46,017 nucleotides of DNA, taken from the sequence record NC_073056.1; one strand, given 5' to 3'. This stretch comes from Escherichia phage rolling. Shown piece by piece: positions 118-26,811 of this stretch. The notes under the pieces are model-generated. The model saw only the letters and a program-made list of their open reading frames with translations. It was not told where the DNA came from and searched no databases. Within the stretch, counting starts at the first letter, position 1. Every line of letters begins with the position of its first letter. A program made the position numbers and the translations under genes.

Positions 118-141
118 AAGGGGCCATAAGGCCCCTTTTTT
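118..141 (+). terminator. Intrinsic terminator (AAGGGGCC-ATAA-GGCCCCTT + T-run)
   Basis: Perfect 8-bp GC-rich stem, 4-nt loop, T6 tract on plus strand; lies where rightward and leftward transcription converge. Confidence 0.6.
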
Positions 142-715
142 AGTTTGAGTTTTCCCAGTCCATCTTGCGCCGCACCAGCGGGCTTTCGTAGTAATCCTTG
201 CCTTCCACTTCCACTAAAGGCCAATCATTAACAATGACGTATGGCTCCGCGATATCTTCAATAACGCCGTGCGCGCTATGTTGTCCGAACGATACGCCCA
301 CCAGGATAACACCGGCAACGCGACGGGTCAGATATTCGCGAGCGCAACGTGCCTCAACCAGTCCGCGACGGATGCCGCTGGTGGCCTTAACCTCGTAGGT
401 CCAGACGGCATCAATCATGTGCTCACGGAAGTCGGGGCCGGACTTAACCTTGCGTTTACCGACCATGATAATATCGCCGCGGTCGATAGTATTGGCGCTA
501 AACAGGCCGGTACGCATAAGCAAGCCTTGCGGGATACAACTACGCCCGCCTGCCTGCCCTTCAAGGTACATGCCCGCAAACATCTCGCCCAGCACACCGA
601 CAAGTCGGCTTTGCTTGCACGCGTCAGACTTTAATCGCCACTGGTCAAACTCGACGCTCGCCAACATTGCCGCTATGTGGAATTGTTTACCTGATATTTC
701 GTATTCGCCGTACAT
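140..715 (-). CDS. Hypothetical protein (191 aa), last gene of leftward early operon
   Basis: ORF track; ATG with GAGGG RBS; no family recognised. Confidence 0.7.
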   Translation of the reverse strand: MYGEYEISGKQFHIAAMLASVEFDQWRLKSDACKQSRLVGVLGEMFAGMYLEGQAGGRSCIPQGLLMRTGLFSANTIDRGDIIMVGKRKVKSGPDFREHMIDAVWTYEVKATSGIRRGLVEARCAREYLTRRVAGVILVGVSFGQHSAHGVIEDIAEPYVIVNDWPLVEVEGKDYYESPLVRRKMDWENSN

Positions 716-757
716 TGTGAAGCCCTCATTGCTGCGGGCCGAAGCCCGCTATTAGAA

Positions 758-1276
758 TTATTTAAGTGCGCTAGTCACCAGTGTTTTTTCCATATTGCGG
801 AAGTCTTCCGGCGTCATGAGTATTTTGGACCCATCCTCGCCAGTGAGCACTACCATAGGCTGGACTTCTTGATCTGCCACACCGAAATTGGCGGCTTTAA
901 CGGTCTTGCCAGCAGATGGCAAAGGGTGCCACGTGCCGGTGGAGATAGGCCAACCCTTGAGGCTGTCGAATTGCGCTGCCGTTGTGTCGACCTGAATCTC
1001 GTCATGCACGGTCATGTAAGACTCGCCCAGCAGTGCGGCATACGCCACCAGGTCAACAATATTGTCTTCCTGGTGCTTACGGTGCTGGCGTACCAGCTTC
1101 AGGCAGATCAGGAAGGTCCAGGCTTCTTGCTCGGTCAGGTCGCGACCGGTAAGCGCGTTAAACACGACAGCGATCTGTTTAGCGCTGCGTTCTTCTTTCG
1201 CGTTGTCATAGCCGTTTTCTTTCCCGCGCTGTTCCATAGTGGTGGCGGCGTTCTTGCAGTATTCAAATGCTTTCAT
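758..1276 (-). CDS. Hypothetical protein (172 aa)
   Basis: ORF track; ATG with AAGGA RBS; promoter-like element and 5' hairpin upstream. Confidence 0.75.
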   Translation of the reverse strand: MKAFEYCKNAATTMEQRGKENGYDNAKEERSAKQIAVVFNALTGRDLTEQEAWTFLICLKLVRQHRKHQEDNIVDLVAYAALLGESYMTVHDEIQVDTTAAQFDSLKGWPISTGTWHPLPSAGKTVKAANFGVADQEVQPMVVLTGEDGSKILMTPEDFRNMEKTLVTSALK

Positions 1277-1320
1277 GATGTTTTCCTTTTAGTGGGGGCC
1301 GTATTGCCCCCGACGCGTTA

Positions 1321-1350
1321 ACTATAGTGCAACCAACCTATTGGTTGCAA
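1321..1350 (-). promoter_or_regulatory. Leftward sigma70-like promoter (TTGCAA-N18-TATAGT) with inverted ATTGGTTGCA motif pair in the spacer
   Basis: Minus-strand -35 TTGCAA (1345-1350), -10 TATAGT (1321-1326); inverted repeat TGCAACCAA (1328-1336) / TTGGTTGCA (1341-1349); followed by GGGGGC/GCCCCC hairpin 1294-1311. Confidence 0.5.
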
Positions 1351-1366
1351 GTAAATTTTGCCACGT

Positions 1367-1708
1367 TTATAGAATAAATTTTCGGGACCAGATCGCCTTA
1401 AATTCTGGCGGTGGGGTGTCGTCCAGCATGTGGCGCATGAACAACCGGCCCGTCGGGAATACTTCCAATTGCTTGGCGGTCGTGTCCCAGCATTCGCGCT
1501 GCCGGTTGGTCAGATACGCTATCTTGAAGCCTTGCTCTTCATACATGCGCAGCAGCGGCAGCATATCCATGTTCAGATCTTCGCGGACGTGCGCTTTGTG
1601 CCACTTTGCCCAAAAGGTTGATTTCGTTTTTATCCCCGGCACCAGGTCGGCACGCGCATCGCTTGAGCCGTTAATAACGCCATCCAAATCGCAAATCAGT
1701 AATTTCAT
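1367..1708 (-). CDS. HAD-like hydrolase motif protein (113 aa; LICDLDGV)
   Basis: ORF track; N-terminal DxDGV resembles HAD motif I; short for a full HAD fold; ATGA overlap with upstream gene. Confidence 0.6.
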   Translation of the reverse strand: MKLLICDLDGVINGSSDARADLVPGIKTKSTFWAKWHKAHVREDLNMDMLPLLRMYEEQGFKIAYLTNRQRECWDTTAKQLEVFPTGRLFMRHMLDDTPPPEFKAIWSRKFIL

Positions 1709-1929
1709 TTTAAACTCTCAATAAGGGTGTAACGGGCGCTTCGCGCAGTAAAGGAGTTGCACACGAAATGGCAACGCTGAGTCATGACAAGCCAACCGGT
1801 GAGGTCAAGGCCCAGGATGTATTCGGGGCGAGACGCGCGCACCACACGATTGCGTCGCTGGTCAATACCGTAGTCTTTTTGCATTTGGTCTACTACCGCT
1901 GGGTCGCGGTCAACGATTAAGATATTCAA
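1705..1929 (-). CDS. Hypothetical protein (74 aa)
   Basis: ORF track; non-ATG start preceded by AAGGAG-like RBS; translationally coupled to next gene. Confidence 0.5.
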   Translation of the reverse strand: MNILIVDRDPAVVDQMQKDYGIDQRRNRVVRASRPEYILGLDLTGWLVMTQRCHFVCNSFTARSARYTLIESLK

Positions 1930-2395
1930 GGAGTTCTCCTTCGCTCATTATTTCAATTTGTGCGCTGCTGGTGGGCGGCGCTTCGTCAAATATTATCAAT
2001 TGCTGGCACTTATTATTGCTCGGCCCAACTTCGCCGGTCACAGCATGGATGAATCGCACACGCCAGTCCAGAAGAATTATCATATTGGCAGTCTTCCGGG
2101 CCAGCTTCGCCCACTTCGTCGACGTGTCCTGATTCAGTAGCATGACAGTACGGCGACCGTGCGCAGCGCACTCGACCCACGGCAGCGGATCGGAGTACGG
2201 CGGATTGCACCACTTCCACCCTTTCAACTCTGACCAGTCCGCCTCAAGCGCGCTATGCTCTGCCGTGAAGTAACGCGGCAGCAGGTGATTGGCGTCGCTT
2301 GCCGCCATATCGTAACGGAATCGGTACTTGCGGCGCAGCGGTTTAAATAAAGCTGGCGGCGTGCGCCAGCTATCCTTTTGCTCATTCTTCGTCAT
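1910..2395 (-). CDS. DNA N6-adenine methyltransferase, phage Dam family
   Basis: N-terminal WRTPPALF...FRYDMAAS and catalytic NPPY (WCNPPYS) motifs; start taken at internal ATG (M14 of track ORF 1910..2434). Confidence 0.8.
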   Translation of the reverse strand: MTKNEQKDSWRTPPALFKPLRRKYRFRYDMAASDANHLLPRYFTAEHSALEADWSELKGWKWCNPPYSDPLPWVECAAHGRRTVMLLNQDTSTKWAKLARKTANMIILLDWRVRFIHAVTGEVGPSNNKCQQLIIFDEAPPTSSAQIEIMSEGELLEYLNR

Positions 2396-2834
2396 GGTCG
2401 GGGGATATCGCGTAAAGGGCAATTTTCTTATCACTGTTTAATATGCGTAGTATGCGCTTTGACACCTCGGCGCTAAGCGCATACCGGTGTAATTCTTCGC
2501 GGCCCAGCCACCCTACCGGAACCAGATCTTTCCGGTCGATCTTAGACTGGCGACCTTTGGGGCGCACGTACTCCTCGGCCCGTTTGCAATGCTCACGCAG
2601 CCCGTCGGCAGTGATGCGGTTTAGTGCAACGCTGGTGGTGTATCCGGTGCGCTGCATAATCCCCATCAATTCGAATAGCAGTTCGAAGCGATCCTCTAAC
2701 TCATGGCGCACTTTCTTCTCGCCTTCATATAGCGCCTGGTTGGTGTCTGCCAGCGCGTTCGCGCGTTCGACCTGTTCGCGGGCTTCGAGGCATTGCGCGG
2801 CCCAGTAATTTTTCTCTTCTTGTAAAATTTTCAT
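2382..2834 (-). CDS. Hypothetical protein (150 aa, coiled-coil-like)
   Basis: ORF track 2382..2876; start moved to internal ATG (M15) with GGAG RBS. Confidence 0.65.
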   Translation of the reverse strand: MKILQEEKNYWAAQCLEAREQVERANALADTNQALYEGEKKVRHELEDRFELLFELMGIMQRTGYTTSVALNRITADGLREHCKRAEEYVRPKGRQSKIDRKDLVPVGWLGREELHRYALSAEVSKRILRILNSDKKIALYAISPDHDEE

Positions 2835-2887
2835 CGTGTTGTCTCCAGGTATTAAAAAGGGCGTCCAACCGGACACCCTTAAGATAA

Positions 2888-2914
2888 TGCAACCAATCTA
2901 ATTACGCAACCAAT
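2888..2914 (-). promoter_or_regulatory. Direct pair of GCAACCAAT motifs upstream of gene 2382..2834
   Basis: TGCAACCAAT 2888-2897 and CGCAACCAAT 2905-2914; a GC hairpin (~2856-2877) follows in the 5' leader. Confidence 0.45.
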
Positions 2915-3238
2915 TTATTCATAAAAATTCGGGTCGCGCGCTACATCTACCAGATAAAGGTTGCTCATTCGGTTGCCGTAGTGCCCTGGCGTGCGCTGGC
3001 GACACACAACTGCGAAGCCTGGAGGGATTGTATTGCCGGTTTCGATAATCCACGCCACGCGCGCGCCAGACAGCTTCTTGCCGTTGCATTCGATACGCGT
3101 ACCGCCATCGGCAGTGTTAAGGTTGCCAATCTTGCTGCCGGTGGACTTAAGGCGAATAACGCCGGTCTTGCTGTCGTAGGAGAATAACTGGTTAGTCATT
3201 GCGACCGAGAAGTCGATGGCTTCGAATGTAGTATTCAT
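2915..3238 (-). CDS. HNH-endonuclease-like protein, apparently degenerate (107 aa)
   Basis: SYDSKTG...NGKK...ARVAW...GNTIPPG pattern resembles HNH_3 homing endonucleases, but the expected His (HRxxW) and DH residues are replaced. Confidence 0.5.
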   Translation of the reverse strand: MNTTFEAIDFSVAMTNQLFSYDSKTGVIRLKSTGSKIGNLNTADGGTRIECNGKKLSGARVAWIIETGNTIPPGFAVVCRQRTPGHYGNRMSNLYLVDVARDPNFYE

Positions 3239-3930
3239 TTTAAATTTCCCTCATTGACTGCTATTGCGAAGCCGCGCGGAGTGAGCGACCGTATTAATTT
3301 GGTGCGGGCAGATTTGCCACCGAGGCGACTATACTGCTTCGAGTACCCTTTTTCAACGAATACCGGCTTTTTCTCCGGCATACGAAAGCCGTTGCCGGTC
3401 CATAAACAGGTCAGCTTTGGATATGAATCGCGGTCGTTGATGTATTCTGGGAACAACGGGTGCGCGTCATCCTCCGGCAGATAGCCGCCATACTCCCACG
3501 GGTCAAACGAGTGGTCTGGCTTGCGCCACTGGGTGGACAGCACACTGCGCGGATTCTCAATCATATATGGCACTTCAAAGAAGTCACCCAGGTAAGCGGC
3601 AATCTTCGCGGTGCGCACGGCCTTAAGCTGAAAGGCGGGGTCTTTCGCACGCTTACGCGGGAACGCGGGCGCACCGCTCACCGCCAGATCCGTGCACGGT
3701 GGGAAAGCGTAGATGACGTCTGGCGTACCAAAATCGCCATTCATAGCGCGGTCTACGAAGTCCAGATCGATAAACTCATTGCGATAGCGGATGCCACGCC
3801 CATAGATACGGTAGTCGAGGTAAGACCCGTGATCGGCTTCGGAGTAGTTGAAACAGTAGCATTTATGCCCCATCTCGGCAGCACGCTCTACCATCAAGCC
3901 GCTGCCGTCAAATAATGACCAGATAATCAC
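3235..3930 (-). CDS. Compact DNA (cytosine-5)-methyltransferase-like protein (231 aa)
   Basis: Motif I-like SLFDGSG, motif IV-like FPPCTDLAVSG, motif VI-like MIENPRSV in canonical order; shorter than typical C5-MTases. Confidence 0.55.
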   Translation of the reverse strand: MIIWSLFDGSGLMVERAAEMGHKCYCFNYSEADHGSYLDYRIYGRGIRYRNEFIDLDFVDRAMNGDFGTPDVIYAFPPCTDLAVSGAPAFPRKRAKDPAFQLKAVRTAKIAAYLGDFFEVPYMIENPRSVLSTQWRKPDHSFDPWEYGGYLPEDDAHPLFPEYINDRDSYPKLTCLWTGNGFRMPEKKPVFVEKGYSKQYSRLGGKSARTKLIRSLTPRGFAIAVNEGNLK

Positions 3931-5351
3931 TTGCGCACCTTCTTAGCTTTCATGTATTCCATCAAATCGTCCTGAATATCGCGCTTACCGTCGCGGCGGT
4001 CTGCCACCAGTTCGTCCAGTGTCCCGCGTGCCTGGATAATGTAGACGAATACCGGTCGAGGGTGTCCGGCTTGCATCTGGCGTACCGGCCCGATACGCTC
4101 CACGATCTGCGCAAAGTGCTCATAGTTCCACGTATCCGAGAAGATAGCCAGGTGATGACCGCCGTCCTGCAAGTTGAGGCCGTGACCCGCCGATGCTGGG
4201 TGTGCGAACATGATGGGGATCTCGCCCCTGTTCCACGCTTCCACATCCTTATTGCCCTGCTTGCCTTTACCCATCGCAACGCCGTGGGGAAACTTCTTCT
4301 TCAGACGTGCCAGGTCGTGCTTGTACTGATACGCAACGAGCAACGGCGCGCCGTTCAACTCTTCTACGATACTTTCCAGCGCGTCCAGCTTGGCGTCGTG
4401 AATCTTCACCCACTCGTCGGTCCGTTCGCCGTCCTCGTCTACCTTATACACGGCACCGGAAGCAAGCTGGAGGCACTTGATGGTCTTCGCCGCAGCGTTC
4501 GCCGCTTCCACTGTTCCGCTTTCCAGTTCGGCAAATAGCTCGCTCTCAAACTGGTCGTAAATCTTGCGGGCTTTCTTCGGCAGGTCCACAACAACCGGCG
4601 TGTAGATGGGCTTGTCACATCCGAAGTATTCAGCCGCGTCCACGGTAAGGGATACATCGGACAGGCGTTGTTGGATCTCCTTCTCGGAGTTCTTGAGCGG
4701 GGCGTGCTGCATAGTGAAGCTGCCGGGTTTAACAGGCTTGCTAATAAACCAGCGATCGGTGAATGCTTTATAACTACTACCGAGGCGTTCTCCACCGTCG
4801 ACAAACCACGTCTGCCCCCATAAGTCCTTCAGTCCGTTTGGTGCAGGTGTGCCGGTAAGGTTAATCCAACGATTGACGTGCTTATGTGCGATCGCCGCCA
4901 GTGCGCGTGCGCGCTTACTACCCTGCTTACTTCGGTAGCCTTTCAGCTTAGTGGATTCATCGGCAACAACGACCGTAAAGGGCCACTCGTCGCCGTAATA
5001 CTCGACAAGCCACTCAACCACATCATAGTTAACGCAAACCACGTTAGCGTTGCTCTCAAGCGCTGCAATGCGGTCTTTCTCTGGTCCGGTGCCGTCTACT
5101 ACCAGCAGGGCTGGGAATCTCCATTTTTCTTGTTCCGGGGGCCACGTACCTGACGCAACGCGCAGCGGGGCTAGCACCAGTACGCGGTCTTCCTGGTTGG
5201 ATAGGATGCCAGTCTGGAACATTTTGTTGAGCGCCCACATAGTCGCGCCGGTTTTACCAGACCCCATTGTCGCCCAAATATTACAACGTTCGTGCTTGAG
5301 AATAAACGCGGTTATCAATTTCTGATATTCGCGACGTCGGAAGCGTGCCAT
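3927..5351 (-). CDS. Superfamily 2 (SNF2/DEAD-like) helicase
   Basis: Walker A TMGSGKTG, DExx box VVADEST; start at internal ATG M31 of track ORF 3927..5441. Confidence 0.8.
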   Translation of the reverse strand: MARFRRREYQKLITAFILKHERCNIWATMGSGKTGATMWALNKMFQTGILSNQEDRVLVLAPLRVASGTWPPEQEKWRFPALLVVDGTGPEKDRIAALESNANVVCVNYDVVEWLVEYYGDEWPFTVVVADESTKLKGYRSKQGSKRARALAAIAHKHVNRWINLTGTPAPNGLKDLWGQTWFVDGGERLGSSYKAFTDRWFISKPVKPGSFTMQHAPLKNSEKEIQQRLSDVSLTVDAAEYFGCDKPIYTPVVVDLPKKARKIYDQFESELFAELESGTVEAANAAAKTIKCLQLASGAVYKVDEDGERTDEWVKIHDAKLDALESIVEELNGAPLLVAYQYKHDLARLKKKFPHGVAMGKGKQGNKDVEAWNRGEIPIMFAHPASAGHGLNLQDGGHHLAIFSDTWNYEHFAQIVERIGPVRQMQAGHPRPVFVYIIQARGTLDELVADRRDGKRDIQDDLMEYMKAKKVRK

Positions 5352-5355
5352 ATCT

Positions 5356-5580
5356 TTATTCCGCCTTTTTCCAGACTTCGGTTTCACTGTTCCAATTCCT
5401 CTTTGTGGCGTCGTAGTTGGTGTCGTGTCCGATGTGCACACCGGTCGAGCGGAAGCTTTTAAACTTCTGCCAGCACACCGTCAACGGCAGCGGGTCATTC
5501 ATGCCTGCGATAAACCACACGCGATCACCTGGTTTGCACTCGCCCAGCTTGGTGAGTCGGTAATGTTCTTTCATCGTCAT
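5356..5580 (-). CDS. Hypothetical small protein (about 74 aa)
   Basis: C-terminal part of track ORF 5356..5787 from internal ATG (M70); upstream part overlaps a better Zn-ribbon ORF in another frame; weak RBS. Confidence 0.4.
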   Translation of the reverse strand: MTMKEHYRLTKLGECKPGDRVWFIAGMNDPLPLTVCWQKFKSFRSTGVHIGHDTNYDATKRNWNSETEVWKKAE

Positions 5581-5617
5581 GTATCCCAAAAATGGCGGGA
5601 CAAGCCCGCCGTATTGA

Positions 5618-5791
5618 TTATTCTTGTTCTGCGCGATAGCGGCGCTGCCTTTCACGCTCTTTCTTATTGCGGCACGATTTGCACTCGGCCCGATGACCGT
5701 CTGGACTGCGCGCAGTCTTGCCGGTGTATTTGTGGAACTGGGATAGCGGCTTGATGCATCCGCAATTACTGCAACGTTTTTCTTCAATCAT
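5618..5791 (-). CDS. Zinc-ribbon protein (57 aa; CSNCGC...CKSC)
   Basis: Four Cys in two CxxC pairs; internal ATG (M21) with GAGGA RBS; GCAACCAAT motif at 5848-5856 upstream. Confidence 0.5.
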   Translation of the reverse strand: MIEEKRCSNCGCIKPLSQFHKYTGKTARSPDGHRAECKSCRNKKERERQRRYRAEQE

Positions 5792-5831
5792 TTCTAAAAT
5801 CCTCGATAGTGCTAACCGGCACACTATACCG

Positions 5832-6110
5832 CTACGCGACCAATTCAGCAACCAATAAATTGCAGTCGGCTATGTTGTCTATAACGCGAACGTCAGCACC
5901 GCGGCGGGCCATCCGTTCATGTTCTCGCACCTGGTGCGGCTTCGGTTTTCCGCCGGGGCGCTTCACTTCGACGAATACTACTCTGCCGTTTATGATAATA
6001 ATCAGGTCGGGCGCACCTGCGCGCCCCTCCCATGCCAGTTTGCGGCAGAATCCGCCAACGGCTTTTACCAGCTTCATCAGGTGACTTTGTATCTTGCCTT
6101 CTGGAGTCAT
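5832..6110 (-). CDS. VRR-NUC domain nuclease
   Basis: PD-(D/E)xK-like GAPDLIIIINGRVVFVEVKRPGGKP signature; ATG start; ATGA overlap with next gene. Confidence 0.75.
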   Translation of the reverse strand: MTPEGKIQSHLMKLVKAVGGFCRKLAWEGRAGAPDLIIIINGRVVFVEVKRPGGKPKPHQVREHERMARRGADVRVIDNIADCNLLVAELVA

Positions 6111-6298
6111 TTGGTTTGCAACTCCACGTTACGCAGACGTAGATCTACCGGTATGTCAGATCGACCGGTTAGCGCCAGCGCCAGGTTTTCAGGCGTGACA
6201 AGTGCCGTAATGGTCTTGCCACGTTCCAGTCTAAGGACGATGCGAATCTCGGCATCGTCCGTCGCGCCAGCGCGCATTATGCTCATTTCTGCTTTCAT
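6107..6298 (-). CDS. Hypothetical small protein (63 aa)
   Basis: Track ORF 6107..6343 from internal ATG (M16) with AGGAAG RBS. Confidence 0.45.
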   Translation of the reverse strand: MKAEMSIMRAGATDDAEIRIVLRLERGKTITALVTPENLALALTGRSDIPVDLRLRNVELQTK

Positions 6299-6302
6299 AA
6301 TC

Positions 6303-8594
6303 TTACTTCCTGTACCGGTACATAATGTCGCCTTCGGCGGCAAGTGGGAAACCTTTCGCCCATATAGGCAGGTCGCACATCAGCGCGCAAAGCTCCTCGG
6401 TCGTGTAGTCGTCGGTGTCCGGCACTTCCGTGATCAATTCATCGTGCACTGACAGGACGATTTCATAGCCCGCAGCTTCAACACCAGGCATGGACCATGC
6501 GAGAATATCGCGGCACAACGCCTGTACGATGTTCTCCGTAAGTTTGCCGCCGTAGGTGTACTGGAATCCCCACTGGCGCGTCGTCTGATTCTCGCCCTGG
6601 TATTTGATGCGGGTACTGGTGCGCTTCTTGCCGGTGTCTTCGTCAATTTCAGTCGTGACAGACAGCGCGATGCCGGGGTAGCTCATGATGCGCCCCGACG
6701 GCAACTCAATTTTCAACCACCACCCCGCGGCGTTCGGGTCGTCGCGCTCCTCGTCGAAGGTTGGGTCGTGCTTCGCCTTCGTGCGCACAATCTTGAGCGC
6801 TTTCCTACCGTCCGGGCGAACGTTCGCGCCAGCCCAGTATGCTTTACCCGGATTGCGGATTGCACACAGCACCGCTTCCTCAAGCTCGGCCCAAAAGGCT
6901 ACGGTCTTCGGGTGCGACTCACGCCACATACGTTTGATCGCGTCGCAGGTCAACCACACGTTTTTAGGCAGTATGTAGGTTGGGCGCTCGTCTTTCTTGC
7001 CAGGCTTCGGCGGGCGCTTCGCTTCGTTGATGCGGGCAAACTCATAGCCACGCTTCGCCGCCGCCCAAATGTGATCGGGGAATGTTCCCTTCATTACGTC
7101 AGCCATCGCGTACAGGTCGAGGCCCAGGTTTTTAGCGAACTGCAAGAACGCAGCAACGCCGCCACCATATCCCAGTCCCAATTCACACGCCTTACCAATC
7201 TGGCGTAGGTCTTTGCGGTTGGCCTTGATGTAGTCCGGGTCGAGGCCGAACATCTTACCGGCAGTTTCACAATAGATATCGCGTCCGGCCTTAAACACCA
7301 TTAGCGCGGTTTTCTCGCCCGCGATCCAGGCAAGGCCGCGCCCTTCCACGTTGGAGTAGTCCGCTACGACAAACTTCTTGCCCTTAGCCGGGATAATGCA
7401 CCCGCGAACGGTCGAGGCGGTTAGCTTCGATATGTCATACGCCCAGTGTGCGGTACCGCGTAACAGGGAGTTGATGCCGTTGGTGAGCATATGAGATCGG
7501 ACCCAAAACGAAACGTCGCTCTCACCTTCTCGGCGCTTAATCTTCCCTTCGTGGTCATCACTGTACTCGCCACGTGCCAGGTTTTGAGGCTGAAAGCCTT
7601 TACCGGCCCAGCGTAGTGTGCGCTTTGCCCCACCGTACTGAAGACAACCACGGCGGCGACCATCGGCAGACAGGCCATTTACGAGCGGATTGTATTTAGT
7701 CGATGCCGTTGATGACGCACCGAGGCGCATCTCAATAAGCACTTTGCCCTCGTCGGGGAAGTCTGGATCTTCCAGCAAGTCATTCAGCGTGGATTTCTGC
7801 GCGTTGTGAATTGTGAACGCCGGGGCAATATCACGCAGGATTGGCAGGAAGTCATTGCCAGTCAGCTTACCGCCGAACAGTTCCCAGGCTTCTTCCTTCA
7901 ATTCCTCTTTATGCACCTGCACCGCCTTGATCGCGGCGTTAGCCAGGTCAACGTCCACATAGAAGCCACGGTCGTTAATCAACTGGTCAATAAGCAGGAT
8001 TTCGTCTTCCTTCGGCGTGTTACCCCAGTCCGGTATGCGCCAGTAGACTTCACGCATTGCGATAATATCCAGCGCGGCATAGCGCAGGAATTTAGCCCAT
8101 TCTTCCGGGTGTGTGTCGCGGGTGTAGCGGCGGATTTTGTAGGTCTTAGGGGTAGGCTTACAGAATCGTTTGATCAGCGCCTTGCCAGCCTTATCCTTCG
8201 CGTGCTCTGCGTCAACGCCCAGTACCCGGCATTGCATATCAAGACTACCCGGCAGCGCATGTCGGAAGGCCATAATCATGGTATCTTCGATCTGGCTTAC
8301 CGGCAGGTCAATACCCCACTTTTCACGGATAACCAGGCGGTCAAACAGGAGGCCGTTCGCCATCACTATTTTTGCTTTTTTGCGGGTTACCTGGCGGAGC
8401 GCCTTGCGTAGTTCACGCGGCATCGTGGGAGATTCAGTGGCGTCCCATGTCTGCACGCGGCCCTCGTCTATGGCGTAGGTGCAAATCATAATCTCGGTGG
8501 TGGGGTGTTCCGCGTAGGCATACGCACCTGCTTTCTTCAGGTCCACCCCGCTAAACGTCTCGGTGTCGAGAAATAGGCGTTCGAAGTCTTTCAT
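6303..8594 (-). CDS. DNA polymerase, family A, with 3'-5' exonuclease domain
   Basis: Exo I motif FLDTETFSG; Pol motif A DYSNVEGR, motif B KACELGLGYGG, motif C SVHDELITEV. Confidence 0.95.
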   Translation of the reverse strand: MKDFERLFLDTETFSGVDLKKAGAYAYAEHPTTEIMICTYAIDEGRVQTWDATESPTMPRELRKALRQVTRKKAKIVMANGLLFDRLVIREKWGIDLPVSQIEDTMIMAFRHALPGSLDMQCRVLGVDAEHAKDKAGKALIKRFCKPTPKTYKIRRYTRDTHPEEWAKFLRYAALDIIAMREVYWRIPDWGNTPKEDEILLIDQLINDRGFYVDVDLANAAIKAVQVHKEELKEEAWELFGGKLTGNDFLPILRDIAPAFTIHNAQKSTLNDLLEDPDFPDEGKVLIEMRLGASSTASTKYNPLVNGLSADGRRRGCLQYGGAKRTLRWAGKGFQPQNLARGEYSDDHEGKIKRREGESDVSFWVRSHMLTNGINSLLRGTAHWAYDISKLTASTVRGCIIPAKGKKFVVADYSNVEGRGLAWIAGEKTALMVFKAGRDIYCETAGKMFGLDPDYIKANRKDLRQIGKACELGLGYGGGVAAFLQFAKNLGLDLYAMADVMKGTFPDHIWAAAKRGYEFARINEAKRPPKPGKKDERPTYILPKNVWLTCDAIKRMWRESHPKTVAFWAELEEAVLCAIRNPGKAYWAGANVRPDGRKALKIVRTKAKHDPTFDEERDDPNAAGWWLKIELPSGRIMSYPGIALSVTTEIDEDTGKKRTSTRIKYQGENQTTRQWGFQYTYGGKLTENIVQALCRDILAWSMPGVEAAGYEIVLSVHDELITEVPDTDDYTTEELCALMCDLPIWAKGFPLAAEGDIMYRYRK

Positions 8595-8761
8595 TGCTTT
8601 ATCCTCACTACGGCGTCAGCGCTGCCGATCATGGAGAAGATTCCGTCGGAAAGGGCAATCTCTTCGCCGTTGTTGCGAATCTCGGCAACGGTAAAATACT
8701 CGCCCAGCAATTTGGACCACACACGCATTCCGACTTTTACTTCACTGGCTTTAATACGCAT
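8591..8761 (-). CDS. Hypothetical small protein (about 56 aa), translationally coupled to DNA polymerase
   Basis: Read by eye (below track cutoff): MRIKASEVKVGMRVW...; stop overlaps pol ATG in ATGA; AGGA RBS. Confidence 0.45.
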   Translation of the reverse strand: MRIKASEVKVGMRVWSKLLGEYFTVAEIRNNGEEIALSDGIFSMIGSADAVVRIKQ

Positions 8762-8773
8762 TTTTCATTGTCC

Positions 8774-8801
8774 TAATAAAAAGCCCGCATTAAGCGGGCT
8801 T
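8774..8801 (-). terminator. Intrinsic terminator/attenuator between SSB gene and polymerase
   Basis: Minus-strand hairpin AAGCCCGC/GCGGGCTT followed by U-rich tract. Confidence 0.5.
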
Positions 8802-8819
8802 GAATAGTGGGCTTTGCCC

Positions 8820-9599
8820 TTAACGGCGGCGACGTTTACGTGGTGCTTCGTCTTCGTCGTCTTCGTCCTCATCTTCGTCATCGCGGGACTTACGACGTTT
8901 ACGCGGCTTATCGTCTTCATCGTCGTCATCTTCATCACGGCGGCGCTTAGACTTGCGCGGTTTTTCATCTTCATCATCGTCGTCACGACGTTTTGACTTT
9001 TTGGATTTACGCGGTGCTTCGTCTTCGTCATCATCCAGGTCGTCGTCAGAGCAATATGCACCGCCGCCGCCACCGAAGGAATCCCCATCATCACGGAAGC
9101 GCATACCCAGCAGACCACAGCCTAAGCCTTTGCCGTTGGTATTGTTCCAGGCCCAAATATCTAAGGAAACGTTGCAATAGCAACCGGAATAGATTTCTTT
9201 CCCTTCGATTTCGTCGCCGTCGATGGTCAGACCCTGCTCCGTCTGCTTCTCGCCTTCGGAAGTCTGGATGATCGGCTGTTTGAATGATTTAGCGTTGATA
9301 TACAGCTTACCTTCAAACTCTTCCGTTACTTCTTCACGCTCATCACCATCTCGAACGGCACATTCTTTCGAATCCTGCGCGTAGTGGCGGTCCATCCACT
9401 TATCGGCGTTCTTCTCAGACTTCAGTTTTTCGGTGAGCACTGCGCGTGCCGCCGCTTCCACTTTGTCCACCTGCGGATCTTCTTTATCAAGAATAATCAC
9501 CGCACGATATGCCGGTTTTTGTCCATCCTGTTTAGGGGTATCACGCTCCCAAATTTTCAGGAAGCATACACGTACATTTTTCAGGTTGACTTTAGCCAT
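8820..9599 (-). CDS. SSB-like protein, DUF2815 family, with unusual alternating acidic/basic C-terminal tail
   Basis: N-terminus MAKVNLKNVRVCF...GQKPAYRAVIIL resembles DUF2815 phage SSB; start at internal ATG (M32) with GAGGA RBS; last ~76 aa are D/E blocks alternating with PRKxKxRR blocks. Confidence 0.7.
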   Translation of the reverse strand: MAKVNLKNVRVCFLKIWERDTPKQDGQKPAYRAVIILDKEDPQVDKVEAAARAVLTEKLKSEKNADKWMDRHYAQDSKECAVRDGDEREEVTEEFEGKLYINAKSFKQPIIQTSEGEKQTEQGLTIDGDEIEGKEIYSGCYCNVSLDIWAWNNTNGKGLGCGLLGMRFRDDGDSFGGGGGAYCSDDDLDDDEDEAPRKSKKSKRRDDDDEDEKPRKSKRRRDEDDDDEDDKPRKRRKSRDDEDEDEDDEDEAPRKRRRR

Positions 9600-9654
9600 T
9601 TTCCAATTCCTCATTTCACATGTATCGGGGTTATTAGAAGCCACCCCGTCCGGC

Positions 9655-9678
9655 TTGGTTGCTAATGTACTTGGTTGC
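9655..9678. promoter_or_regulatory. Pair of TTGGTTGC motifs in SSB upstream region
   Basis: TTGGTTGC at 9655-9662 and 9671-9678, between membrane protein gene and SSB gene. Confidence 0.4.
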
Positions 9679-9695
9679 GTTTCCGCGGTCAAGTG

Positions 9696-9929
9696 TTATT
9701 TATCAAAAAGTTTTAAAATCAGGTCGAGATATTTGTGCAGCCACACCAGTGGTGGGCGGTGCACGTTGTTTCCCATCCAGTTCAAACAGGCTTCGTTATA
9801 GCCGTCGTCCCATAAGCGGGATGGGTGGCGAATCATCCAGGCCAGCGCCAGCAGACCGCCGCAGGTATGTACTACGAATCCCAGCGCCGCAAGCGGCAGC
9901 ACCATAATCATTGCCAGAATCTTATTCAT
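9696..9929 (-). CDS. Small membrane protein (77 aa)
   Basis: Internal ATG (M43 of track ORF 9696..10055) 3 nt after upstream stop; hydrophobic ILAMIMVLPLAALGFVV... segment. Confidence 0.5.
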   Translation of the reverse strand: MNKILAMIMVLPLAALGFVVHTCGGLLALAWMIRHPSRLWDDGYNEACLNWMGNNVHRPPLVWLHKYLDLILKLFDK

Positions 9930-11352
9930 CGCCCAAATCCTCGTCGCTTGCTTCTTGCCATTCCGGGCGCGGGTCGTCAACTGGTGCCAGGACCGGTTTC
10001 GCCGGCGCACGCGTGATTTTATCTTGCAGTTTCGCCCACACTTTCGGTTTCTCATCCTTCAGCACCTTCTCGGCATCAGTAGGGCTGATTAATGATTCCT
10101 TGTACATCAGGTCGCGCTTGATCCGGGCCGTTGTGAATACAGCGATAACTTCGCTTTCATCCTTCCACTTACGCGCACCTTCACGACCAGCTACCAGCTT
10201 CAGGCCCAGCGCTTCGCCGTCACCGGCTAACACTGCTTTGAATACGGCAGTCTCGATCGCTTTGATGTGCTGGCGCATGGTTTCCAGGCCGTCGTAAGCC
10301 TTCTTCAGTTCTTCCGTGGTCATAGCACCGGCTGGCGCTTCTTTCTTGCCACGCTTCGCACGTCGGGCAGCTTTCCGGGCTTCGAGGTCCATGTTCTGGT
10401 CGTGGTTTTTGCATTCTTCCTCGGCGGCAATGCTTACATCGTCGCCCAGGTCTTCGTCGGTTGCCGTTGGTGGCGTCATTGTGTCGATGGCGGCTTTAGC
10501 GCGGGAACTACATTGGTCCGCAAATCGACACCACTGACACGCATCGGCGCTCGGACGGAAGTCTGCACGGGTGAGATTCTTCTTACCCTTAGCGAGGGCA
10601 TCCAGGGCGGCTACTGCGCGTTTTGCTGCGTACTTGGCGAAGATTTCCAGTGCTTCCACCGAAATATCCCACTCCGACGCCCCGCCGCAATACGGCTGGA
10701 ATATGACCAGGCGCACGGTTGTTATGTCGTACATCTTTTGCAGCTTGCGCAGCAGTCCGAGCGCATACAGCATAAGCTGTTTGTTCTCTTTCGCCTCGAC
10801 CTTATGGCGCCCGGTCTTCAGGTCGCCCACAATGAGCATGTACGTGCCGTCGGTCTTCTTCATTACCATAACCATATCGGCAGTACCGAAGGTCTTGATC
10901 GCTTCGCCGTCAATCTCGTAGCCTTTGTGCAGGACGCGAGTCAGATCCGCGCGCATCTCAAGCTGTACAAACTCGGCAACTTCAAGCAGCGGTCGCCAGT
11001 GGTCGATGTACGCGTCGCACTGTTTCACCATGTCGTCAGTTACCAGGATGGCGTCCTTAGGTGCTTTAGCTGCCGCTTTAACTGGTCCTTTACCCTGATT
11101 TTCGACGTAGCACCCTTTATATGTCTTCGCCGTGATGTGGTCTTCGCCTGCAATGATGCGGTTTAGTACCACTTCAGATACGGTGTGCATACTCGTACCG
11201 TTGATCGCGGCTTGCCCGGATTCGTTCGGAATACCTTTCTCCACCACCAGGGCGGCGGGACACCCCATCCATTTTTTAGCGCCGGATGGGCCGAGTAATG
11301 AGTGTTCTGTATTACTGCCGGATTGCGTCTTGCGCTTCGCTTTGATAGCCAT
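9922..11352 (-). CDS. PD-(D/E)xK nuclease, DUF2800/Cas4-like (phage exonuclease)
   Basis: N-terminal LLGPSGAKKWMGCP, GDLKTG, C-terminal Cys cluster CQWCRFADQC; conserved neighbour of DUF2815 and pol A. Confidence 0.75.
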   Translation of the reverse strand: MAIKAKRKTQSGSNTEHSLLGPSGAKKWMGCPAALVVEKGIPNESGQAAINGTSMHTVSEVVLNRIIAGEDHITAKTYKGCYVENQGKGPVKAAAKAPKDAILVTDDMVKQCDAYIDHWRPLLEVAEFVQLEMRADLTRVLHKGYEIDGEAIKTFGTADMVMVMKKTDGTYMLIVGDLKTGRHKVEAKENKQLMLYALGLLRKLQKMYDITTVRLVIFQPYCGGASEWDISVEALEIFAKYAAKRAVAALDALAKGKKNLTRADFRPSADACQWCRFADQCSSRAKAAIDTMTPPTATDEDLGDDVSIAAEEECKNHDQNMDLEARKAARRAKRGKKEAPAGAMTTEELKKAYDGLETMRQHIKAIETAVFKAVLAGDGEALGLKLVAGREGARKWKDESEVIAVFTTARIKRDLMYKESLISPTDAEKVLKDEKPKVWAKLQDKITRAPAKPVLAPVDDPRPEWQEASDEDLGDE

Positions 11353-11540
11353 TATTCGACCCTCGTAAATTGAGCAATATAATAATCATGCTTAATTCCT
11401 GCTTTCGCCGCGGCGTTATTCATTGTCGCTGCCAGTTCTTTCGCTTGCATCCAGCAACAATTCCAGTTCTGATTCATAATTATTTCCGGCTGTTCGTCGC
11501 CGGTGTTACGGCAGCGAAATAAAACAAAGAAAATACTCAT
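11352..11540 (-). CDS. Hypothetical small protein (62 aa)
   Basis: Internal ATG (M6 of track ORF 11352..11555); TAATG overlap with upstream gene. Confidence 0.4.
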   Translation of the reverse strand: MSIFFVLFRCRNTGDEQPEIIMNQNWNCCWMQAKELAATMNNAAAKAGIKHDYYIAQFTRVE

Positions 11541-11791
11541 TATGGCGTCTCCCAACGGTCAATAGTTTTTGCTTCAGATCCAACTGCAAAGCGAACATAT
11601 TCATGATTCGAGTCCGCCCATAAATAAAAGTCTGGATTAGCGAAGGTCGTGCGTTTAATTTGTGCCGGTGTTTCCCGCTTCTTACTAATTACGGCAACGC
11701 GCGATTGAAATGGGCCGGTGCGTTCGAATAGCCAATAATAAGGGCGCTGGTCGCGTGAATCCACCGCCTCGATTAGCGTGAAGCGTGCCAT
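11540..11791 (-). CDS. Hypothetical protein (83 aa)
   Basis: ORF track; GAGGA RBS. Confidence 0.6.
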   Translation of the reverse strand: MARFTLIEAVDSRDQRPYYWLFERTGPFQSRVAVISKKRETPAQIKRTTFANPDFYLWADSNHEYVRFAVGSEAKTIDRWETP

Positions 11792-11839
11792 TATCTCGTC
11801 CTCTAAAAATAGGCCCGCAGATTAGCGGGCCGGATAATA

Positions 11840-12358
11840 TTAATCTTCTAATTCGAAATACGTTTCTACGATTTCTTTTAAATCTTTGTGGAAGTCTTCG
11901 ACGTCGTCATCTTCCAGCTTGGCGACGGATTTAATTTCGAACGCTTCCAGCAGATCATCAAATTCGTCGTTTGCGTCGTCGTCATCTCCGCCCGCAATAA
12001 TAGCGGCATACTGTTTGATTTCGTCGCGCATTTCTTTAAGCGGATCGGCATCTTTCTTGCCTTTGCCTTTCGCCGGTGCTTTCTTAGATTTCGCCGGGGC
12101 TTCTTCCTCGTCCGCGTCGTCGTCTTCTTCTACGGCTTCTTTCTTAGCCTTGCCCTTTGCGGGCGCTTTTTTGGTCTTTGCCGGGGCTTCGTCTTCAGCA
12201 TCGTCATCTTCGGCTACTTCTTCTTTCGCCTTGCCCTTTGCCGGGGCTTTCTTCGCTTCCTGTTTACCAACGGCAGCGCCAGCAGTTTCATAATGCTTAG
12301 CGATGGTTTCCAGTGCTACAACGCCGCGAGTGATCAGGTTTACGATTTGCTCAAACAT
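11840..12358 (-). CDS. Charged low-complexity protein with three KKAPAKGKxKK / acidic repeats; first leftward early gene
   Basis: ORF track; ATG with GGAG RBS; repeats EEVAEDDDAEDEAPAKTKKAPAKGKAKK x3. Confidence 0.7.
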   Translation of the reverse strand: MFEQIVNLITRGVVALETIAKHYETAGAAVGKQEAKKAPAKGKAKEEVAEDDDAEDEAPAKTKKAPAKGKAKKEAVEEDDDADEEEAPAKSKKAPAKGKGKKDADPLKEMRDEIKQYAAIIAGGDDDDANDEFDDLLEAFEIKSVAKLEDDDVEDFHKDLKEIVETYFELED

Positions 12359-12419
12359 GGTATATCTCCGATTGGTTAATTTTAAGTGTTCGGTGCGGTA
12401 TGCCCCGTCAACGAGGTGA

Positions 12420-12449
12420 ATAATAGATTGGTTGCATGCGGGGTGTCAA
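12420..12449 (-). promoter_or_regulatory. Leftward early promoter (TTGACA-N18-TATTAT)
   Basis: Minus-strand -35 TTGACA (plus 12444-12449), -10 TATTAT (plus 12420-12425); ATTGGTTGCA motif (12427-12436) fills the spacer. Confidence 0.55.
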
Positions 12450-12460
12450 CAACTAATTTC

Positions 12461-12497
12461 AAAAAAAAAAAAGCGCCGAGGCAAAATGCGACGGCGC
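12461..12497 (-). terminator. Minus-strand intrinsic terminator in divergent control region
   Basis: GCGCCG/CGGCGC stem preceded on plus strand by A12, giving hairpin + U12 on minus-strand RNA. Confidence 0.55.
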
Positions 12498-12568
12498 TAA
12501 CCAATAAGAGACAATGAGACGTGATTATTATTACACGCGTGCGCGCCCGTTTCAATATTCAAAAGGAG

Positions 12569-12597
12569 TTGACACCCTGCAATTTTAGGTGTAGTTT
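12569..12597 (+). promoter_or_regulatory. Rightward promoter (TTGACA-N17-TAGTTT)
   Basis: Consensus -35 TTGACA 12569-12574, -10 TAGTTT 12592-12597, upstream of AGGAG RBS and ATG 12629. Confidence 0.55.
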
Positions 12598-12628
12598 CGT
12601 TGGTCATTAACCAATAGGAGACAGAACA

Positions 12629-12958
12629 ATGCATATCAACGACGCAATCGAAATGTTAACCAATGCTGTTAGCGGTGAGACAAGCCGGTCCTGGGCTTAT
12701 ACCGATGCCGTGGGTGAGGTGCTATTTGAAATCGAACGTCTGCGCAGTGTCGAAAAAGAATTGCGCGCCAAGCTGGAATTGCTAAACGGTACGGCAGCAA
12801 GCAAGTTGCAAAAGCACAACGAAGAAATGGAAGAATACAAAAAGCAGGTTATCCGTTTACGCGACGAGGGCAAGTCCTGGGCGATGATTGCCGAGTTGAC
12901 AGGAATTAATCAGAGCACCGTACGCTCATGGGTACGCAATAATAAAACTTCTAAATAA
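12629..12958 (+). CDS. HTH DNA-binding regulator (109 aa)
   Basis: C-terminal helix-turn-helix SWAMIAELTGINQSTVRSWVRN; ATG with AGGAG RBS. Confidence 0.75.
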   Translation: MHINDAIEMLTNAVSGETSRSWAYTDAVGEVLFEIERLRSVEKELRAKLELLNGTAASKLQKHNEEMEEYKKQVIRLRDEGKSWAMIAELTGINQSTVRSWVRNNKTSK

Positions 12959-15230: not shown

Positions 15231-15339
15231 TTTGTGCGCGTATTGGTTGCCGATATGGGAATTCCCATATCGCTAAAAGATTAAATTTTGCGCGCATTGG
15301 TTGCCATTTTGGGTGTTTTTAGCTGGTCGCATTGGTTGC
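15222..15339 (+). repeat. Tandem duplication of primase 3' end with three ATTGGTTGCC motifs and a 22-bp perfect palindrome
   Basis: AAAGATTAA..GCGCG.ATTGGTTGCC at 15222-15251 and 15276-15305 (~27/30 identical); palindrome CGATATGGGAATTCCCATATCG at 15251-15272; third ATTGGTTGC at 15331-15339. Confidence 0.7.
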
Positions 15340-15371
15340 CGTGTAGTGTAAATATAGTGAATAGTTATGCA

Positions 15372-15547
15372 GTTTTATTGCATAAAGTAAGCGGGACAAA
15401 AAGCGGGACAAACATGGGGCGGGACAAAGCGGGACAGCACCCCCTGTCCCGCCCGGATGGCGCGGCTTGCGGAGGAGCGGGACAGGCGGGACAAACCTCA
15501 GTCTTTCAGACTAGACGGGGTCAGTTGGCCCCCCTCGTCTGAGACTG
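15372..15547 (+). repeat. Iteron array 1: GCGGGACA x7 with TGCATAA motifs and conserved ~50-bp imperfect hairpin
   Basis: GCGGGACA at 15391, 15403, 15419, 15429, 15477, 15487 plus inverted TGTCCCGC at 15445; hairpin 15499-15547; AT-rich stretch just upstream. Confidence 0.85.
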
Positions 15548-15701
15548 CATAAAATCCGGGATTGCATAACGCACGGCAGCATGATGTGAATTGCGGTCGT
15601 CGATGAACTAGGCAACCAATGCGTGTTGAATAATGGAGAGTGAAAAATGCAGTTTGCAGTTGCAGCAGATAGCGATCAACTTTTTCATACGCATGATTAA
15701 T

Positions 15702-15742
15702 ATTGGTTGCATTCAGCCTGGCACCCTGCTAGATTGGTTGCA
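15702..15742 (+). promoter_or_regulatory. Promoter-like element with two ATTGGTTGCA motifs upstream of gene 15764
   Basis: ATTGGTTGC 15702-15710 and ATTGGTTGCA 15733-15742; TTGCAT-N17-TAGATT reads as a sigma70-like promoter. Confidence 0.45.
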
Positions 15743-15763
15743 CACCAACAAGAGGATTGAACA

Positions 15764-16090
15764 ATGAGAGCATTAATCTGGAATTACTCACTGGCAATGG
15801 CGAAGGCACAAGAAGCGGCGGAGTTCGCCGGTGAGGGGGCGGAAGCGGTAGAAAGACTATCGGCAGCGTGGTCCGTTGTTCGCGTCACGCAGCAGGCCAT
15901 CGCCTGTATGCTGGAGCGCCGCTTCGACACGATGGAAGAGATCCAGCCGCTGGCTTCTGCCATCCAGGACTACGCGCTTGCATTCGCCCGTGAGCGCCTG
16001 GCCTATCGCCTCGGTATTGGCGAGAAGGCATTGGCAAACGTCGCCCGGATTAAAGCCCAGCGCGAACTATTCGCCAAGCTTGCGAAATAA
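15764..16090 (+). CDS. Hypothetical protein (108 aa)
   Basis: ORF track; ATG with AGAGGA RBS. Confidence 0.7.
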   Translation: MRALIWNYSLAMAKAQEAAEFAGEGAEAVERLSAAWSVVRVTQQAIACMLERRFDTMEEIQPLASAIQDYALAFARERLAYRLGIGEKALANVARIKAQRELFAKLAK

Positions 16091-18697: not shown

Positions 18698-18762
18698 TTG
18701 CTTGACTTGCAACCAACATAAGGGCCATACTGCAACCAATCAACGAGAAGGAGTAACACACT

Positions 18763-26717: not shown

Positions 26718-26739
26718 TTGTGTTTCCTCATTGTTGGTG

Positions 26740-26811
26740 TGCAACCAATATAGTGCAACCAATACCTGTATTGCAAGCGAATTTTGCGATTATTTTTATC
26801 GCTGATAATAT
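26740..26811. promoter_or_regulatory. Back-to-back divergent promoters (leftward for moron genes, rightward for scaffold/capsid)
   Basis: Leftward: TTGCAA (26771-26776) N18 TATATT (plus 26747-26752), with TGCAACCAAT at 26740-26749 and 26754-26763; rightward: TTGCGA (26784-26789) N16 TAATAT (26806-26811). Confidence 0.5.

Follow-up and report, generated by a model that had tools for sequence, protein, structure and literature searches.

What is a leftward-facing intrinsic terminator doing between two divergent promoters? This question is raised by the 270-bp intergenic region at positions 12359-12628 of Escherichia phage rolling (NC_073056.1), a Dhillonvirus, that is, an HK578-like virulent siphophage of Escherichia coli. 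The whole stretch of 46,017 nucleotides that we analysed is called the window here. In a crude gene map, the minus strand carries all genes from 140 to 12358 and the plus strand most of those from 12629 onward, and 12359-12628 is thus the single divergence point of the genome. A first-pass annotation of this region had noted a leftward and a rightward promoter with a hairpin between them, had called the terminator oddly placed, and had suggested a regulatory RNA or insulation between the divergent units. We found that the hairpin is not oddly placed, as it closes a compact transcription unit with a promoter of its own, from which a short leftward RNA is probably made. A self-contained leftward small-RNA unit, with occlusion of ribosome-binding sites (an 'anti-RBS' action) as the favoured mechanism, is our best explanation of the locus, and we give it slightly less than even confidence. 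The anti-RBS action on the two flanking genes is, taken by itself, a more tentative proposal.

A candidate small-RNA gene between two early promoters

The following elements lie between the leftward early promoter (P_L) and the rightward early promoter (P_R).

12527..12555, minus strand: small-RNA promoter, with TTGAAA at 12555..12550, a 17-nt spacer and TGT-AATAAT at 12535..12527 (an extended -10)
12465..12520, minus strand: predicted small RNA of ~56 nt, 5'-GUCUCAUUGUCUCUUAUUGGUUA-hairpin-U(n)
12498..12520, minus strand: 'seed', the 23-nt 5' part of the RNA; the plus strand reads TAACCAATAAGAGACAATGAGAC, TAACCAATAAGAGACA
12473..12498, minus strand: terminator hairpin, AGCGCCG, UC-GCA-UUU-UGC-CU, CGGCGCU
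12461..12472, minus strand: T12 run (A12 on the plus strand), the U-tail of the terminator, which is also at about -48 to -59 of P_L

The small-RNA promoter matches the sigma-70 consensus at 10 of 12 positions. Only four sites with at least 10/12 matches exist in the 46-kb window (~92 kb on both strands) when A2 and T6 of the -10 are required. Two of these four are inside the 270-bp region, and the small-RNA promoter is the sole TG-bearing site among them. It occupies the interval between the terminator and P_R; the terminator follows ~25-60 nt downstream on the same strand. The small-RNA promoter is arranged in tandem with P_L and back to back with P_R, with 13 bp separating its -35 hexamer from that of P_R. 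A promoter is annotated at this place in the HK578 record.

We placed the RNA start 7 nt below the -10 (G at 12520) and the 3' end within the U-run, near 12465. The 5' 22 nt of this RNA are unpaired in both the minimum-energy and the centroid predicted folds. The hairpin arms read GCGCCG (12473-12478) and CGGCGC (12492-12497) on the plus strand, next to the A12 run, as the first-pass annotation had said. In the minus-strand RNA, they form a 7-bp stem and, past a 2x2 internal loop, a second stem of 3 bp; U12 comes next. The folding energy of the hairpin is -16.7 kcal/mol (z = -4.3), a value that none of 200 shuffles reached. Because its outer stem encloses 13 nt, it escaped a simple terminator scan. 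The plus strand has no T-run after the hairpin, which therefore terminates leftward RNA only, in agreement with the earlier proposal. The same proposal had postulated a short leftward RNA that starts to the right of the terminator, between 12497 and 12630. The predicted start at ~12520 falls within this interval, though not near the start of the first rightward gene, which encodes a helix-turn-helix (HTH) protein and where the start had been sought. Its description as an antisense or leader transcript of the HTH gene does not fit either, as the predicted RNA would start from a separate promoter that is arranged back to back with P_R.

This arrangement and its statistical rarity were computed directly, and from them we infer that the RNA is produced, with approximately the ends given above. 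The pieces of the unit have been marked by annotators in separate records but never joined, and the unit is not annotated as a gene. For example, the hairpin is a minus-strand terminator in the record of Escherichia phage vB_EcoS_WF5505 and a plus-strand terminator in the CS16 record. No Rfam 15 family reached its gathering threshold in the whole window, and a permissive Rfam scan of 12300-12700 gave only sub-threshold, terminator-driven matches (the best has 21 bits against a threshold of 72). The module also has no match in 5,426 complete E. coli genomes; therefore, the RNA is not a mimic of a host small RNA. The locus thus appears to have what marks a small-RNA gene, namely its own promoter, a terminator and no conserved coding potential.

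Conservation of the unit among Dhillonviruses

We then investigated the relatives of this region. A BLAST search showed that the locus region is 97% identical to that of WF5505 and 85-95% identical to those of ~150 other Dhillonvirus records. The region was collected in three ways: 14 IMG/VR contigs were found through the HTH protein, 15 GenBank phage records through BLAST and 12 metagenome contigs through a sequence pattern. There were 34 distinct sequences in total. The conservation statistics, given as mean column entropy, are based on the 27 relatives recruited independently of the pattern; the 12 metagenome contigs were left out because recruitment by pattern biases them. The values on the minus strand are as follows.

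12498..12520, minus strand: seed (5' part of the RNA), 0.022 bits, 1 variable column
12527..12535, minus strand: small-RNA promoter -10 plus TGT, 0 bits
12550..12555, minus strand: small-RNA promoter -35, 0.038 bits
Between the -10 and the RNA start, minus strand: discriminator, 0.645 bits, length varying from 4 to 8 nt
Between the small-RNA promoter -35 and the P_R -35: 0.515 bits

For the 30-nt block 12492-12521, 147 phage records show an identity of 99% or more, the whole intergenic region being 85-97% identical. This entropy pattern, a computed result, is the footprint expected of promoters together with a transcript that is presumably functional. The spacer of the small-RNA promoter is also far more conserved (0.11 bits) than the spacers of P_L (0.25) and P_R (0.57). 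In this spacer (12536-12549), we found a 15-nt alternating purine/pyrimidine tract, TACACGCGTGCGCGC, with the perfect palindrome CACGCGTG. A protein may bind this tract, or it may be an element that is prone to form Z-DNA and sensitive to supercoiling.

The terminator hairpin is paired in 100% of cells across 7 sequence variants. In the clade of Ioannina and LM40P1, both bases are substituted in two stem pairs (G-C to U-A and G-C to C-G), and one inner pair is changed from A-U to G-U, where a plus-strand RNA would have an A.C mismatch. These computed stem changes point to the minus strand as the RNA strand. The seed of the Ioannina clade has a 1-nt deletion without compensation in the leaders. 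The length of the A-run varies from 8 to 14 among the relatives, and the longer open reading frames (ORFs) annotated here in some records are broken because of this variation.

Two kinds of matches were set aside. One contig from the metagenome pattern scan (L045; OQVL01056812.1) is an assembly chimera of a Dhillonvirus joined to an Illumina adapter (AGATCGGAAGAGCGTCGTGTAGGGAAAGAGTGTAG) and was dropped. The IMG/VR matches to the 16-mer AAGAGACAATGAGACG outside Dhillonvirus occur in unrelated contexts and were judged to be due to chance.

We also compared more distant genera, represented by Cornellvirus VSiP, Eiauvirus eiAU and Kagunavirus RP180. VSiP and eiAU have the same divergent layout, with no such module in the homologous intergenic region. 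In both the Edwardsiella phage eiAU (L066, 2490..2372, minus strand) and the Salmonella virus VSiP (L065, 2444..2324, minus strand), a leftward promoter-like site is followed ~50-60 nt later by a GC hairpin with a T-run, between a small first gene and the primase-helicase gene. These phages may thus encode a comparable short leftward RNA at another position.

Complementarity of the seed to both flanking leaders

Read on the plus strand, the seed repeats, as a third copy, a motif that covers the leader and the Shine-Dalgarno sequence of both flanking first genes, the leftward 172-aa gene and the rightward HTH gene.

12363..12379, minus strand: P_L leader motif TTAACCAATCGGAGATA, with the Shine-Dalgarno sequence of the 172-aa gene; nearly invariant in relatives
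12600..12623, plus strand: P_R leader, an inverted repeat TTGGT-CATTA-ACCAA and then TAACCAATAGGAGACA (12608-12623), which contains the Shine-Dalgarno sequence of the HTH gene

Over the Shine-Dalgarno sequence of the left gene, the motif copy reads TAACCAATCGGAGATA (12378..12363, minus strand), and TAACCAATAGGAGACA is the copy of the HTH gene. If up to two mismatches are allowed, the 14-mer TAACCAATAGGAGA has three copies in the window, where 0.06 are expected; two are at the flanking ribosome-binding sites and one is antisense in the RNA. As this third copy is transcribed antisense, pairing of the RNA is possible with either leader, over the Shine-Dalgarno sequence. The predicted duplex with the HTH leader has 17 bp and -23.1 kcal/mol, with none of 300 shuffles being as good. 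The one predicted with the left leader is paired at 15 of 16 positions and has -17.9 kcal/mol (p ~0.01 against shuffles). When the RNA was paired with 66 crude translation-initiation regions of the window, that of the HTH gene ranked first and that of the left gene was tied for fourth. Second and third were the gene starting at 15764 and the primase-helicase gene, which share CAATGAGAG with the seed. In 29 relatives, we compared each seed with the leaders of its own genome, and the pairing beats dinucleotide shuffles (p <= 0.04) for the left leader and for all right leaders of the 109-aa-HTH type.

We propose the following mechanism, in which the targets are what we infer from this complementarity. 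The hairpin and the T-run would be the intrinsic terminator of a self-contained leftward unit between the two divergent early promoters. Host sigma-70 RNA polymerase would initiate near 12520 from the extended -10 promoter (12555..12527), transcribe the 23-nt unstructured and genus-invariant 5' segment and stop in the U-run past the GC hairpin, thereby producing a ~56-nt RNA. The seed, GUCUC-AUU-GUCUCUUAUUGGUUA, would pair with UAACCAAU-N-RGAGA(C/U)A over the Shine-Dalgarno sequence of the first gene of each early operon. This pairing would damp or time the translation of the 172-aa gene on the left and of the HTH gene on the right, the regulator being encoded beside its targets. The terminator would also keep polymerases that start at the small-RNA promoter off P_L, and the T-run, judged by its position at the place of an UP element, might double as the UP element of P_L. 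Between the two functions suggested by the first-pass annotation, a regulatory RNA is supported in silico, while insulation is possible but not needed.

A wider role can be imagined, in which the ~56-nt RNA is a master anti-Shine-Dalgarno regulator that throttles or times early translation in both directions, or in which its seed is aimed at a host RNA. In the former case, other leaders with AACCAA-N-GAG and CAATGAGA, namely those of the genes starting at 15764 and 12969, would possibly be targets as well. We consider this extension somewhat unlikely.

Several observations weigh against the proposed regulation. Neither a transcript map of any Dhillonvirus nor expression data were found in the literature searched; the RNA-seq study of phage bov25_1D reported host genes only. 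Both compensatory stem changes come from one clade and represent few independent events. As the seed is invariant, covariation lends no support to the pairing, and the drift of the HTH leader among relatives (TTAACCAACTGAGGGC and similar sequences) is not answered by changes in the RNA. The HK578-type phages have lost the right-hand target, that is, the HTH gene together with its leader, and keep the module intact. In a duplex scan of the whole genome, several sites in coding regions score -24 to -27 kcal/mol, so values of -18 to -23 are not extreme. Moreover, AACCAA upstream of the Shine-Dalgarno sequence is also found in VSiP and eiAU, whose divergent intergenic region lacks the module. The AACCAA core is part of a genome-wide motif as well (see below), and the likeness of the three copies could therefore be a feature of the DNA or of the leader context.

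The flanking promoters, genes and a genome-wide motif

We then investigated the surroundings of the unit, which include the two early promoters and the first leftward gene.

12420..12449, minus strand: P_L, leftward early promoter, with TTGACA at 12449..12444, an 18-nt spacer and TATTAT at 12425..12420; predicted start ~12413
12569..12597, plus strand: P_R, rightward early promoter, with TTGACA at 12569-12574, a 17-nt spacer and TAGTTT at 12592-12597; predicted start ~12604
11840-12358, minus strand: first leftward gene, 172 aa, function unassigned

Both promoters had been recognized in the first-pass annotation, as TTGACA-N18-TATTAT and TTGACA-N17-TAGTTT, and its distance of ~120 bp is accurate, with the -35 hexamers of P_L and P_R 120 bp apart. 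P_L matches the sigma-70 consensus at 11 of 12 positions and is the best match in the whole window. Its hexamers are conserved among relatives, the HK578 record has a promoter annotated there, and its spacer holds a copy of the genome-wide motif, TGCAACCAAT, at 12427-12436. The -10 of P_R matches only 3 of 6 consensus positions, which is why the promoter scan did not list P_R. In the 27 relatives, the -35 of P_R is invariant (0 bits) and the -10 is nearly invariant, with 0.567 bits for the spacer and 0.545 bits for the leader. The HK578-type phages have TAGTAT at the -10 position, where the HK578 record annotates a promoter. In all, that record annotates exactly three promoters genome-wide, all of them in the homologous intergenic region, the middle one included. 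In the phage analysed here, the 270-bp region holds essentially all strong host-type promoters and is therefore the entry point of the infection programme. As such promoters are very few, the rest of the genome must use read-through or non-canonical promoters.

The repeat TTGGT-N5-ACCAA at 12600-12614 (TTGGTCATTAACCAA) falls right on the predicted start of P_R, and the related TTGGTTGCACACCAA precedes two other operon-leading genes (15735-15749 and 26735-26749). We take its half-sites to resemble GntR/PdhR-type boxes (ATTGGT...ACCAAT), the spacing of which is different. Most Dhillonviruses (L002, L003, L005 and others) have an extra, well-conserved insertion of ~133 bp in the P_L leader, between the equivalents of 12389 and 12390. 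This insertion, on which no gene is annotated, is missing in the window and in WF5505, YD-2008.s and Envy. In the HK578-type phages (L018, which is HK578, L051 and L058), compared with 12575-12958 of the window, we found a mosaic junction directly after the -35 of P_R. Their first rightward gene encodes a protein of 142-150 aa (starting with MSTNET...) and replaces the 109-aa HTH gene, with a different -10 context and leader. All sequence to the left of the junction is kept, including the small-RNA module.

The leftward operon spans 12 kb and contains replication and recombination genes. The 172-aa protein encoded by its first gene matched no Pfam family in our scan. This protein has alternating lysine/alanine-rich (KKAPAKGKAK) and acidic repeats, the number of which differs between relatives, and the 'welsh' record has a repeat_region there. 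Pfam and PHROG scans identified, further to the left, a DUF2800/PD-(D/E)XK nuclease and an Enc34/Gp2.5-type single-stranded-DNA-binding protein. To the right, they identified the 109-aa HTH protein (HTH_23) and then a 753-aa primase-helicase. The HTH_23 protein mostly carries the wrong label 'transposase' in the records.

The motif GCAACCAA(T) has 22 copies in the window, where 1.4 are expected. Most of the copies lie at gene boundaries, and many form tandem pairs with a distance of 14-17 bp or palindromes (GCAACCAAcctaTTGGTTGC at 1329-1348); HK578 has 19 copies at syntenic places. Example sites are as follows.

1329-1348, 2889-2913, 9655-9678, 12427-12436, 15243-15741, 16288, 18709-18739, 26741-26762 and 42870: GCAACCAA(T)

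This motif looks like the site of a phage-wide DNA-binding regulator or like a phage-specific promoter element. It is frequently found directly upstream of a -10-like hexamer (TGCAACCAATnTAnnnn). A literature search for the motif sequence returned only papers that appeared unrelated from their titles, and no description of GCAACCAA(T) was found in the literature searched. The 530-bp non-coding stretch at 15231-15763, after the primase-helicase gene, has six motif copies, four of them as the extended GGCAACCAATGCG(C/T)G. Because of this iteron-like arrangement, the stretch is a candidate replication origin.

Alternative explanations

Control at the level of DNA is a rather unlikely alternative, and it could hold together with the small-RNA model. 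The conserved block and the three TAACCAAT copies would then be operators, related to the GCAACCAAT sites, for a phage DNA-binding protein. This could be the HTH_23 protein, encoded by the first rightward gene. The A/T run would be the UP element of P_L, in accordance with its position, and the short RNA would be incidental, or its transcription would insulate or topologically couple the promoters. Such a protein would account for the abundance of GCAACCAA, for its paired or palindromic sites at gene boundaries and for the copy in the P_L spacer, together with their syntenic counterparts in HK578. It would also account for the inverted repeat that overlaps the predicted P_R start and for the fact that all four TAACCAA copies of the window are within 12372-12664. 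However, the 23 invariant nucleotides exceed a typical operator and reach through GAGACAATGAGAC, outside the GCAACCAAT motif. Operators also leave unexplained the hairpin with its compensatory changes and its minus-strand-only pairing change, as well as the top-ranked extended -10 promoter aimed at this hairpin. A fourth TAACCAAT copy, inside the HTH gene (12657-12664), is lineage-specific and not conserved, and we did not treat it as a target.

An attenuator resembling lambda P_R' and 6S RNA seems improbable. A short terminated RNA would be made by default, and read-through into the 12-kb leftward operon would depend on a phage factor that is loaded either at the promoter spacer or on the early transcribed segment, both of which are conserved; the RNA would be a by-product. 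The order of promoter, short RNA, terminator and same-direction operon is what this requires, and the first 23 transcribed nucleotides are invariant. In lambda, the Q-binding element lies between the -35 and the -10 of the promoter, and the well-conserved spacer of the middle promoter is at the corresponding position. On the other hand, P_L, with its 11/12 match, lies directly downstream of the terminator and would make read-through redundant. Pfam and PHROG scans of 10 to about a dozen flanking early proteins revealed no Q-, N- or other antiterminator-like family, and none is annotated in HK578. The attenuator further leaves unexplained the complementarity of the transcribed segment to both flanking ribosome-binding sites.

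We give equally little probability to a real small RNA whose invariant seed targets a host RNA or protein (an E. coli mRNA, a host small RNA or Hfq) instead of the phage leaders. An invariant host partner would more easily explain why the seed is identical in ~150 genomes while the right-hand leader varies or is replaced. A hairpin with a long U-tail, as is found here, is typical of Hfq-binding small RNAs. However, the 5,426 complete E. coli genomes hold no similar sequence, which speaks against a mimic of a host small RNA, and it is with the adjacent genes that the best pairings within the phage are predicted.

The first-pass annotation had also pointed out a micro-ORF starting near 12514, which does exist.

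12514..12588, plus strand: micro-ORF of 24 codons plus stop, judged not to be a gene

That it is a translated leader peptide or small protein is very improbable. The frame stays open in all 34 relatives (19-31 codons, with an ATG start) and is preceded by a ribosome-binding-site-like sequence, but its peptide is not conserved, its middle being read in two frames (YYYTRARPFQY and LLLHACAPVSI) owing to small indels, both in the discriminator and in the inter-promoter DNA; AAGAG is only 3 nt from the ATG, which is a poor Shine-Dalgarno spacing; in the promoter scan, no rightward promoter-like site preceded 12498, and the genes to the left of the locus are all on the minus strand; and the annotation pipelines of different records have placed mutually incompatible small ORFs on the region. 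The 5' end of the minus-strand RNA accounts for the conserved ATGAGAC.

Comparison with known systems

Dhillonviruses are among the most often isolated E. coli siphophages. Standard collections contain several of them, such as BASEL Bas14-18 and Bas83-85 (PMC11990801), and SECphi4 is also a Dhillonvirus. In the literature searched, we found nothing published on the control of early transcription in Dhillonviruses. Post-transcriptional regulators are well documented in temperate phages and much less in virulent ones (PMC12197685). If our explanation is correct, a virulent phage would have such a regulator, in the form of a conserved and self-contained small-RNA gene where its genome has its single divergence point. 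The candidate is easily testable, as a 300-bp fragment comprises three promoters and one terminator.

The predicted RNA is a phage-encoded small-RNA candidate outside any named family, and it shares features with several known systems. The Hfq-dependent small RNAs of the RybB/OmrA type in enterobacteria have ~55-90 nt, with a conserved single-stranded seed at the 5' end, a GC-rich hairpin as terminator and a U-tail of 7 or more, and act by occluding Shine-Dalgarno sequences. The candidate RNA resembles them in its predicted size and architecture and would likewise occlude Shine-Dalgarno sequences; in contrast, it has no Rfam sequence or covariance-model match and is encoded by a virulent phage. 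The set of lambda P_R', 6S RNA and t_R' is similar in having a strong promoter, a short terminated RNA and a long operon in the same direction, and the conserved interval between the -35 and the -10 is at the position of the Q element. The differences are that no Q-like protein was found among the flanking early proteins, that a strong promoter follows the terminator, and that the operon consists of replication and recombination genes rather than late genes.

P22 sar and lambda OOP are RNAs of ~70-77 nt with their own sigma-70 promoter and intrinsic terminator, which lie in the early control or replication region and repress a neighbouring regulatory gene (PMC12197685). The candidate RNA likewise has its own promoter and intrinsic terminator in an early control region. 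However, sar and OOP are cis-antisense RNAs that overlap a convergent mRNA (ant and cII, respectively) and pair perfectly with it. At our locus, no such overlap was found, there being no rightward promoter-like site upstream of 12498 and the sole overlapping ORF not being conserved as a protein. The pairing of the candidate RNA would instead be imperfect and in trans, with sites 90-150 bp away.

The c4 RNA is processed from the leader of the operon that it controls and is part of an immunity circuit of temperate phages. In this antisense RNA of P1 and P7, unpaired segments are complementary to repeats over the icd/ant ribosome-binding region, and it acts in trans while being encoded beside its target (PMC12197685). 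The candidate RNA differs from c4 in having its own promoter and terminator, in belonging to a virulent phage and in having two divergent operons as would-be targets, and the two RNAs have no sequence similarity. In its logic, nonetheless, P1 c4 is the closest match to the anti-RBS model proposed for the candidate RNA.

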